Shown piece after piece: positions 70-2,285 of a DNA stretch of 2,285 bases. The notes under the pieces were generated by a model. That model worked only from the letters and a program-made list of their open reading frames with translations. It searched no databases and was not told where the DNA came from. The translations under genes and the position numbers were made by a program. Position 1 is the first letter of the stretch. The number at the start of each line of letters is the position of its first letter. The DNA comes from Escherichia phage ECO95 1-6-1: sequence record OR845503.1; one strand, given 5' to 3'.

Positions 70-354
70 ATGGCTAAATACTCTGAAGAATTAAAAGGCG
101 TTGTCCGCGCACTTTATCTGCGCCGCTATACGCCAAAAGAAATTGCATCTGAATTAAATCTGCCGAATGCGCGGATCGTTTACTACTGGGCTGAAAAATA
201 CAGCTGGGCTGATTTGCTCAGTTTTGAAAGTACTGAAGAGGCTATCGAACGCCGCTACCAGCTACTGGCCAGCCGGGATAACAAAACCGATCTCGACCTG
301 AAAGAAATGGACATGCTCATTGCTCACGCCACAAAACTGCGTGCGCAAAGCAAT
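70..354 (+). other. Terminase N-terminal HTH-like domain (aa 1-95)
   Basis: Helix-turn-helix-like segment KEIASELNLPNARIVYYWAEKYSW, followed by a charged low-complexity linker. Domain boundary is approximate. Confidence 0.5.
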
Positions 355-1845
355 AAGCATAAAGAAAAGATGGCCAGCGGTCAGAACTCCGGGCAGGCAG
401 ATGCGCGGGACAGCAATTATGACGAACCCCGCCGCAAACGGAAATACAAGAAAAACGATATTTCCTCGCTGACGCAGGAGGATTTTGACGCCTGGGCTGA
501 TGAACACCTGTTTGAATACCAGAAACACCTGCGCCGGAATATTGGCCAGCTGGTCAGAAACATCCTCAAAAGCCGCCAGATAGGTGCGACCTGGTATTTT
601 GCATTTGAAGCCTTTGAAAACGCGGTCATGACAGGCGATCCGCAAATCTTCCTGTCTGCCTCCAAAGTCCAGGCGGAATACTTCCGGTCTTACATCGTAA
701 ATATTGCTGAACAGTATTTCGGGATCACGCTGACCGGCAACCCCATCCGCTTGTCCAACGGCGCGGAGCTGCGCTTCCTGTCCACCAACAAGAACACCGC
801 CCAGTCCTACAGCGGCCACCTGTACTGTGATGAATATTTCTGGGTTCCAAATTTCACAAAACTTAATGAAGTGGCCAGTGCAATGGCCACACATGACAAG
901 TGGCGTACCACCTACTTTTCAACACCGTCAGCTAAAACTCACCAGGCGTACCCGTTCTGGACAGGCGATGAATGGAAACAGGGCAGTAAAAAACGTACTG
1001 CCATTAAGTTTCCGACCTTTGATGAATTGCGCGACGGCGGGCGGGTTTGTCCGGATGGCCAGTGGCGCTACGTCATTACTATGGAGGATGCTATTGCGGG
1101 CGGCTTCAATCTGGCCAACATCGAGAAGCTGCGCAACCGCTACAACACAGCCACTTTCAACATGCTCTATATGTGCGTGTTCGTGGACAGTAAAGATTCC
1201 GTTTTCAGCTTTTCCGACCTGGAAGCCTGCGGCGTGGAAGTGGATACCTGGCAGGATCATAACCCGGATGCCGCCCGGCCATTTGGTGACAGGCCAGTAT
1301 GGGGCGGCTTTGATCCGGCTCGCAGCGGGGATTTGTCCTGTTTTGTGATTGTGGCGCCGCCGATGTTCGCCGTGGAGAAATTCCGCGTTCTGAAGGTGAT
1401 TTACTGGAAAGGAATGAACTTCCGGTACCAGGCAAAGCAGATCGAGCAGCTGTTTAAAAAATACAACTTCACCTATCTGGGCGTGGACGTTACCGGTATT
1501 GGCCAGGGCGTTTTTGACAACATTCAGCATTTTGCCATGCGTGTGGCCGTCGCCATTCGTTACGACCTGAACACAAAAAATCAGCTGGTACTGAAGGCGG
1601 CTGACGTGGTCGAAAGTCAGCGAATTGAATGGGACAAAAACCTGAAAGAGATCCCGGCCAGCTTTATGTCCGTACGCCGCACAACCACGCAAAGCGGTAA
1701 CGCCATGACCTTTGTTGCAGACCGCAGCCAGGACACAGGACACGCCGAAGCGTTCTGGGCGATAACCCACGCTCTGCATAACGAACCTCTGAACTATGAA
1801 AATAAACCTAAATCACGCTGGAATTTAAGGAACAAGGCAGCATGA
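70..1845 (+). CDS. terL: Phage terminase large (ATPase/nuclease) subunit, P2 gpP-like; complete
   Basis: Single uninterrupted 591-aa ORF, ATG at 70, TGA at 1843-1845. N-terminal HTH-like region (LYLRRYTPKEIASELNLPNARIVYYW) typical of gpP-type terminase N-termini. Deviant P-loop KSRQIGAT (aa 167-174) and Walker B HLYCDEYFW (aa 250-258) about 85 residues apart, as in terminase ATPases. C-terminal RNase-H-like nuclease signatures GGFDPARSGD (aa 412-421) and YLGVDVTGIGQGVFD (aa 469-483). Length matches the ~590-aa P2 gpP class. An in-frame TAA at 1-3 and no alternative start upstream make ATG 70 the first possible start. Confidence 0.85.
   Translation: MAKYSEELKGVVRALYLRRYTPKEIASELNLPNARIVYYWAEKYSWADLLSFESTEEAIERRYQLLASRDNKTDLDLKEMDMLIAHATKLRAQSNKHKEKMASGQNSGQADARDSNYDEPRRKRKYKKNDISSLTQEDFDAWADEHLFEYQKHLRRNIGQLVRNILKSRQIGATWYFAFEAFENAVMTGDPQIFLSASKVQAEYFRSYIVNIAEQYFGITLTGNPIRLSNGAELRFLSTNKNTAQSYSGHLYCDEYFWVPNFTKLNEVASAMATHDKWRTTYFSTPSAKTHQAYPFWTGDEWKQGSKKRTAIKFPTFDELRDGGRVCPDGQWRYVITMEDAIAGGFNLANIEKLRNRYNTATFNMLYMCVFVDSKDSVFSFSDLEACGVEVDTWQDHNPDAARPFGDRPVWGGFDPARSGDLSCFVIVAPPMFAVEKFRVLKVIYWKGMNFRYQAKQIEQLFKKYNFTYLGVDVTGIGQGVFDNIQHFAMRVAVAIRYDLNTKNQLVLKAADVVESQRIEWDKNLKEIPASFMSVRRTTTQSGNAMTFVADRSQDTGHAEAFWAITHALHNEPLNYENKPKSRWNLRNKAA
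568..591 (+). other. Deviant Walker A / P-loop of terminase ATPase (KSRQIGAT)
   Basis: Codons aaa agc cgc cag ata ggt gcg acc read directly at 568-591. Pattern K-S-x-Q-x-G-x-T with Lys at the motif start and Ala where canonical GK[ST] has Lys, comparable to the deviant lambda gpA-type P-loop (KSARVGYS) and T4 gp17 SRQLGKT. Confidence 0.55.
817..843 (+). other. Walker B motif of terminase ATPase (HLYCDEYFW, catalytic D254-E255)
   Basis: Hydrophobic strand followed by Asp-Glu at 829-834 (gat gaa), about 85 residues after the P-loop. A possible motif III/C-motif TYFSTPS follows at aa 281-287. Confidence 0.6.
1282..1842 (+). other. Terminase C-terminal RNase-H-like nuclease domain (approximately aa 405-591)
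   Basis: Acidic-residue motifs typical of terminase nuclease domains: GGFDPARSGD (D415 at 1312-1314), YLGVDVTGIGQGVFD (D473 at 1486-1488), FVADRSQDTGHAEAF (aa 548-562). Boundaries are approximate. Confidence 0.5.
1827..1837 (+). promoter_or_regulatory. Shine-Dalgarno region for the portal gene, embedded in the 3' end of the terminase gene
   Basis: AAGGAA at 1827-1832, about 10 nt upstream of ATG 1842, followed by a second AAGG at 1834-1837; purine-rich and complementary to the 16S anti-SD. Confidence 0.5.
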
Positions 1846-2285
1846 GTAAAAAGAAACACTTCGTTAAGCGCGACCAGCGCGGCGATAAGTCAAAAAAAAT
1901 GAGCATCATTACGTTCGGCAAACCGGAACCGGTTCTGACCACTGGCACCGACTACCGGGATATCTGGTACGACAATGCCGCCGATCATTTTACTCAGCCA
2001 ATTGACCGGCTGGCACTGGCACAACTGATTAACCTTAACGGTCAACATGGCGGTATCATCCACGCCCGTAAAAACATGATTGTGTCTGATTATCTGTCTG
2101 GCGGCCTGACTTACGACCAACTGGAAGCCGCAGCTTTTGACTACATCACATTTGGGGATATTGCGCTTGGAAAAATTCGTAACGGATGGGGAGATGTGAT
2201 CGGACTGGAACCCTTACCCGGCCTCTATATCCGACGCAGGAAAGACAGGAACAACGCAACTGATCAACCTGGTGATTACGTGGTG
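1842..2285 (+). CDS. Phage portal protein, P2 gpQ-like; 5' partial, continues beyond window end
   Basis: Open frame from ATG 1842 to the window end (148 codons, no stop); not in the supplied ORF track because it lacks a stop. Translation MSKKKHFVKRDQRGDKSKKMSIITFGKPEPVL... carries a lysine-rich N-terminus and an FG(K/E)PEPVL motif that I recall from the N-terminus of P2 gpQ-type portals. The ATG overlaps the terminase stop (ATGA) and is preceded by AAGGAA. Position directly after the terminase fits P-Q gene order. Confidence 0.7.
   Translation, partial: MSKKKHFVKRDQRGDKSKKMSIITFGKPEPVLTTGTDYRDIWYDNAADHFTQPIDRLALAQLINLNGQHGGIIHARKNMIVSDYLSGGLTYDQLEAAAFDYITFGDIALGKIRNGWGDVIGLEPLPGLYIRRRKDRNNATDQPGDYVV

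Follow-up and report, generated by a model that had tools for sequence, protein, structure and literature searches.

A Peduoviridae packaging operon, very probably from an ESSI-2-like prophage of Salmonella enterica

Genes of the window

The 2,285-nt stretch of DNA considered here, from the record of Escherichia phage ECO95 1-6-1 (OR845503.1), contains packaging genes of a P2-family element that is very probably a prophage of Salmonella enterica. The whole stretch is referred to as the window, and coordinates count from its first letter. Two genes lie on its plus strand, one complete and one represented by its 5′ part. The first (positions 70 to 1845, stop codon included) encodes a large terminase subunit of the gpP type (TerL) of 591 amino acids (aa), recognized from its open reading frame (ORF) and from Pfam, PHROG and BLASTP matches. 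The second (1842 to 2285) is a gpQ-type portal gene that the window end cuts after the first 148 of 353 codons (the 5′ 42%). The first 69 nt (1 to 69, plus strand) are non-coding and form the 3′ part of a divergent control region of about 160 bp between a gpO-like scaffold gene and the terminase gene. An earlier note on this DNA, made from the letters alone, had proposed a gpP-type terminase followed by a gpQ-type portal; the two ORFs and their family matches, with E-values far below anything expected by chance, bear this out.

The window is 100% identical to a segment of OR850877.1 (“Salmonella phage S.Kent 1-2-1”), a 15,415-bp contig without annotation and flagged UNVERIFIED_ORG, from which the full portal and the right flank were read (contig L001 below). 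Loci in chromosomes were examined over 22 kb each, and at one of them (L057, in chromosome CP194313.1) the 10 kb upstream of the window genes were inspected.

The large terminase

The terminase reading frame is uninterrupted and its product is composed of three domains. An N-terminal gpP-like helix-turn-helix domain (Terminase_5, PF06056; aa 13-63, positions 106 to 258) is matched with an E-value of 1.4e-10 and 41.4 bits against a cut-off of 20.3. Such a domain is a hallmark of P2-type large terminases. It is followed by the ATPase, or motor, domain (Terminase_6N, PF03237; aa 164-385, positions 559 to 1224; E 2.4e-52) and by an RNase H-like nuclease domain (Terminase_6C, PF17289; aa 412-571, positions 1303 to 1782; E 5.6e-29), both above the gathering score. 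P2 gpP, scanned in parallel, has the same three domains at aa 12-69, 164-386 and 413-571, so the domain check suggested by the earlier note returned the layout of P2 gpP itself. The two proteins share 42% identity over 565 aa (BLASTP, E 3e-149). Several PHROG large-terminase families also match (best 1.4e-103), and NCBI has the exact protein under the name “MULTISPECIES: terminase family protein [Salmonella]”. No NCBIfam model named the terminase, and a sequence search of the PDB with it gave no match at E ≤ 0.01. On these domain and family matches, the protein is classed as a P2 gpP-type large terminase.

The catalytic motifs are intact. Eight terminases with identities between 95% and 41%, P2 included, were aligned, and the motifs were tabulated over 59 loci. 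The ATPase domain carries a deviant Walker A motif (KSRQIGAT, positions 568-591), a Walker B motif (LYCDE, 820-834) and the coupling motif FSTPS (aa 283-287), and residues K167, S168, R169, Q170, G172, T174, D254, E255 and F283-S287 are invariant in the eight aligned relatives down to P2. Three acidic motifs mark the nuclease domain: GFDPA and GVDVTG, with the conserved D415 and D473, and GHAE, with E560. From the precedent of other large terminases, we take these acidic residues to be metal ligands or catalytic. Walker A, Walker B, FSTPS, GFDPA and GVDVTG are kept across the 59 loci. The last motif varies by lineage: every relative of at least about 77% identity, including the infectious phages ESSI-2 and ESSI2_ev040 (hereafter ev040), has GHAE (HAE at positions 1741-1749, aa 558-560), whereas all more distant relatives, P2 included, have GHAD. 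From the analogy with P2, the enzyme would be expected to drive packaging with ATP and to cleave a cos site together with a gpM-like small subunit.

Three further ORFs lie inside the terminase gene, two antisense on the minus strand (262..894 and 928..1779) and one out of frame (827..1348). Lacking any Pfam match, they were set aside as shadow ORFs.

The portal protein

The portal ORF opens at the ATG at position 1842, so that the terminase stop and the portal start overlap in the tetranucleotide ATGA (1842..1845), read directly from the sequence. In P2, too, the P and Q genes abut, with one base in common. The overlap suggests that translation of terminase and portal is coupled.

The 148-aa fragment in the window matches phrog_68 (3e-33). 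Because of its length, it reaches 41.8 bits on TIGR01540, whose cut-off is 166.05, and is without a Pfam match. The full 353-aa protein scores 222.4 bits on the same model and matches PF04860 (Phage_portal, 2.6e-16), and P2 gpQ likewise passes both. With these matches, the portal-family check proposed in the earlier note came out in its favor. Over 338 aa, the full portal shares 33% identity with P2 gpQ (BLASTP, E 4e-57), and the fragment shares 30% (E 5e-13), which agrees with the “moderately similar” N-terminus described at the outset. Both proteins begin with MSKKK. A motif FGxPEPVL had also been called conserved: the window portal has FGKPEPVL and P2 gpQ has FGEPVPVL, so the common part FG-x-P-x-PVL stands, while the exact motif is not found in P2. 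NCBI names the exact protein “MULTISPECIES: phage portal protein [Salmonella]”, and a PDB sequence search with the full portal gave no match at E ≤ 0.01. The family matches place the protein with the P2 gpQ-type portals (TIGR01540 portal_PBSX, PF04860, phrog_68).

Flanking genes and the prophage-host junction

Upstream of the window on contig L001, the minus strand encodes a gpO scaffold (PF05929), a P2-family capsid protein (gpN, PF05125, 3e-97) and a gpM small terminase subunit (PF05944, 6.8e-37), with P and Q on the plus strand. A head completion gene (PF05926) of the element likewise lies upstream on the minus strand. The late-operon order P-Q is thus as the earlier note described it for P2-like phages, and it is divergent from O-N-M-L, as in P2. 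The 10 kb upstream in L057 add gpL, gpR, the tail sheath (DUF2586) and tube (HP1_Orf24), a holin, an endolysin, a tail chaperone, the tape measure protein, a DUF2590 protein and Baseplate_J.

An Ogr/Delta zinc-finger gene (PF04606, 9.2e-20; exact C-X2-C-X22-C-X4-C) stands directly 3′ of the portal gene in the same orientation, at L001 5958/6012-6281 on the plus strand, 630-950 bp downstream of the window end. Beyond it on L001 come gpA (PF05840, 2.3e-106), a Dam-type methylase, a DUF2732 protein, Fil and CII (CP76), followed by a 186-type CI repressor, a bPH/SHOCT protein, an integrase and a 262-aa ORF.

The right end of the contig passes into host DNA. L001 14797-14841 corresponds to the last 45 nt of tRNA-Ile(CAU) and is followed by a terminator-like hairpin; L001 14921-15340 belongs to a siderophore-interacting/NfeF gene, whose identity to nfeF at the corresponding tRNA-Ile/nfeF locus of E. 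coli is only about 75%. The tRNA-Ile piece, first recognized by its likeness to the E. coli ileX sequence and presumably its counterpart, falls under an annotated tRNA-Ile gene next to nfeF. The tRNA and Rfam scans of L001 gave no match, the piece being a 3′ fragment only. The right end is therefore a prophage-host junction at tRNA-Ile (ileX) next to nfeF. The host at this junction is an enterobacterium other than E. coli, consistent with Salmonella. OR850877.1 is thus a chromosomal prophage fragment and not a virion genome, since the record carries host DNA, an UNVERIFIED_ORG flag and a low coverage (4.79) in its name. With this junction and the phage genes on both flanks, the locus is of phage origin, as had been expected. 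The flanking features that the earlier note had advised inspecting were found, namely scaffold, capsid, small terminase, tail and integrase genes and an attachment (att) junction at a tRNA, and genes for head completion, lysis, Ogr and gpA are present besides.

Cargo genes lie around the integrase. A bPH_3/SHOCT-domain gene lies between the CI repressor and the integrase (L001 12298-12870), and a low-GC (about 35% guanine plus cytosine) ORF of 262 aa without a Pfam match lies between the integrase and the att site (L001 13893-14681). These positions differ in relatives, with a KAP NTPase-like gene in locus L060 and an abortive-infection protein in ev040, and they look like a variable slot for morons or defence genes.

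Relatives among known phages

Among phage records, a megablast search with the window returned ESSI-2-like phages only, and nucleotide similarity to P2 was not detected. The Escherichia phages ESSI2_ev040, ev015 and ev129 are 88% identical to the window, Cronobacter phage ESSI-2 81% and ESSI2_ev239 74%. A tblastn search with the terminase reached 489 phage records, with 80-100% identity in the ESSI-2 group and 35-58% in the rest. The matches listed in the latter range include P2, Wphi, L-413C, Peduovirus, Burkholderia, Ralstonia, Vibrio, Pasteurella and Aeromonas phages. All matches listed with a lineage or a gpP annotation are P2-like, and on this list a reading of the protein as a non-P2 terminase was rejected.

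The closest relatives are the infectious coliphages ev040, ev015 and ev129, all Peduoviridae of the same layout, whose 88% nucleotide identity extends over the whole window. The record of ev040 gives the genus as Quadragintavirus, and its terminase is 95% identical in protein sequence. The ev040 genome likewise has the divergent O-N-M-L and P-Q-ogr blocks, followed by gpA, a Dam methylase, CII, a Cox/Apl-like protein, a repressor and an integrase. About 11.4 of the 15.4 kb of the contig align to it, at 75-92% identity by segment; for comparison, the genus threshold of the International Committee on Taxonomy of Viruses is about 70% nucleotide identity over the full length, which makes the contig a borderline case for Quadragintavirus. 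The two elements differ at the immunity/integrase end and in cargo: the contig has bPH/SHOCT and the 262-aa ORF, and ev040 has an abortive-infection gene and an acetyltransferase. They also differ in host, which is E. coli for ev040, ev015 and ev129 and Salmonella for the window element.

Cronobacter phage ESSI-2 (Peduoviridae, Seongnamvirus ESSI2) is 81% identical over 92% of the window, with a terminase 88% identical in protein sequence. Its gene order equals that of the window element, with a transcriptional regulator gene immediately downstream of the portal gene, but it represents a different genus-level lineage and has a different host. The annotated ESSI-2 terminase starts further upstream (a coding sequence of 1920 nt), probably an annotation difference.

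P2 (Peduovirus) is a more distant relative. It shares the three-domain terminase with matching coordinates, the TIGR01540/PF04860 portal, and P before Q on one transcript divergent from O-N-M-L. The protein identities to P2 are just 42% (gpP) and 33% (gpQ), the regulatory region of the window element is 186-like (CI, CII, Fil) and its ogr homologue directly follows Q, unlike in P2. By sequence comparison, then, the nearest classified genera are Quadragintavirus and Seongnamvirus and not Peduovirus. The earlier note had supposed a distant member of the family rather than a canonical enterobacterial P2 prophage; it was right about the distance, but the prophage does belong to an enterobacterium, Salmonella, in which it is very common.

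As a separate observation, the terminase match falls into two pieces spanning 2.3-2.5 kb, against 1.8 kb otherwise, in Aeromonas phage phiO18P, Salmonella phage BIS20 and Yersinia phage vB_YpM_MLG42. This suggests an insertion in the gene, of the intron, intein or homing-endonuclease type.

A complete prophage, a remnant or a satellite

Taken together, the genes, their order and the junction leave little doubt that the P-Q late packaging operon in the window belongs to an apparently complete Peduoviridae myovirus prophage integrated in Salmonella enterica, of the ESSI-2-like lineage. The element is a complete-looking P2-family myovirus prophage and neither a satellite nor an isolated module, because it has its own tail, lysis, replication and Ogr genes in L057.

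Several observations weigh against this interpretation. The chromosomal origin of OR850877.1, with its UNVERIFIED_ORG flag, its coverage of 4.79 and its included host DNA, is one. Another is HAE in place of HAD in the last nuclease motif. The glutamate is conservative, clade-wide and common to the infectious ESSI-2 and ev040, and for these reasons it is judged from the alignment to be no sign of decay. The strict Ogr site TGT-N12-ACA is also missing from the O/P intergenic region: it has three matches in the 15.4-kb contig, equal to chance and none of them intergenic, and with one mismatch allowed there is still none in the O/P region of the window element or of ev040. The O/P region of P2 itself does not contain the strict pattern either. 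Finally, the 19-mer of P2 cos, searched with up to three mismatches in the related complete genome of ev040, gave no match.

The strongest competing explanation is a defective or domesticated (cryptic) remnant that no longer yields infectious particles and has kept terminase and portal by recent descent or through use by the host. It could appeal to the unverified, low-coverage contig with its host chromosomal DNA and to an upstream view limited to 10 kb, outside of which the distal tail-fibre end and attL would lie. However, every gene seen over about 22 kb is intact and syntenic with infectious ev040 and ESSI-2, and all terminase motifs are intact. The terminase protein is, moreover, identical in all five of the chromosomal places read, across which the window is 99.1-100% identical in nucleotide sequence. 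A remnant is accordingly held to be improbable. A satellite or capsid-forming island, with its own terminase and portal but dependent on the tails of a helper phage, had been raised by the earlier note and has a precedent in P2-family helpers, classically parasitized by satellites such as P4, yet the chromosomal element has its own sheath, tube, tape measure, baseplate, lysis cassette, gpA and Ogr, and the complete genomes of related phages measure about 30 kb, which leaves this explanation almost no credit. Both the remnant and the satellite were rejected on the gene context in L057.

Proposed late control and a model of packaging

The complete prophage favored above would presumably have the late promoter of its P-Q transcript in the O/P intergenic region (L001 2968-3127), whose last 69 bp open the window. 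The sigma-70 consensus gave no match in this region. The region does contain a perfect dyad, TTCGG-N13-CCGAA, at L001 3051-3073 (window -8 to 15); its right arm CCGAA occupies window positions 11-15, and the left arm falls immediately before the window starts. The dyad is kept in ev040. With one copy per genome it occurs at chance level, so it was not supported as a shared late-promoter or regulon motif; it may be an activator site, as a candidate only.

Two ATG codons could open the ogr gene downstream. The one at L001 5958 overlaps the stop of the portal gene; the one at 6012 has GGAG before it and is the likely true start. The sole terminator-like hairpin on the ogr strand comes directly after the gene (6285-6300), and none is predicted earlier. 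Since ogr directly follows the portal gene in the same orientation with no terminator until after it, co-transcription with P-Q is possible. In P2, ogr is located elsewhere in the genome. Co-transcription with the late P-Q operon would, if true, create positive feedback of the activator on itself. A broader proposal, that P2 late control and packaging have been rewired in the ESSI-2-like clade, through co-transcription of ogr with P-Q, a non-P2 activator site and a non-P2 cos, is regarded as doubtful.

Under the mechanism proposed by analogy with P2, the Ogr-type zinc-finger activator would, late in lytic growth, switch on the divergent late promoters that separate the scaffold gene from the terminase gene. 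Both the large terminase and, via the ATGA overlap, the portal would then be translated from a single rightward mRNA. Twelve copies of the portal protein would seed a procapsid of P2-family capsid protein and gpO scaffold, both encoded on the opposite strand. Recognition of the packaging site would fall to the large terminase together with the gpM-like small subunit, and the RNase H-like domain of the large terminase would make the cut. Subsequently, the large terminase would dock on the portal and pump DNA into the procapsid with its ATPase domain. Promoter control, translational coupling, cos-type cutting and the actual activity of the operon are predictions of this model.

Copies and distribution

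In the 4.84-Mb chromosome CP194313.1 the window recurs at 100% identity, and in four other assemblies at 99.1-99.9%. The exact terminase protein was found in 5222 index blocks of an assembly collection, and related prophages are present in 46 of 5426 complete E. coli genomes. In species-representative genomes, relatives are widespread in Enterobacterales, with more distant ones in Vibrio, Shewanella and Pseudoalteromonas. Of 459 Salmonella genomes, 43 were reported to contain ESSI-2-like prophages, and the ESSI2_ev phages, obtained from viromes, are temperate and infect E. coli (Mathieu et al. 2020, PMC6969025). The element is therefore already known: it is a common, already annotated Salmonella prophage, and ESSI-2-like prophages in Salmonella have been published. 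What the analysis adds is a label for a GenBank phage record that is “unverified” and lacks annotation: a fragment of a common ESSI-2-like P2-family prophage of Salmonella, integrated at tRNA-Ile (ileX)/nfeF. This is of use for database curation and for prophage typing in Salmonella, and it opens no new biological question.

Two of the relatives lie in records with unexpected labels. A terminase of 95% identity is encoded on JAEWTL010000126.1 (L004), a contig binned as a “Bacillota bacterium” metagenome-assembled genome, which is probably a mis-binned enterobacterial prophage. A relative of 78% identity lies on NZ_JBJYIN010000030.1 (L016), a Pectobacterium record of 24 kb that bears the label “plasmid unnamed3” and may be a circularized phage genome.

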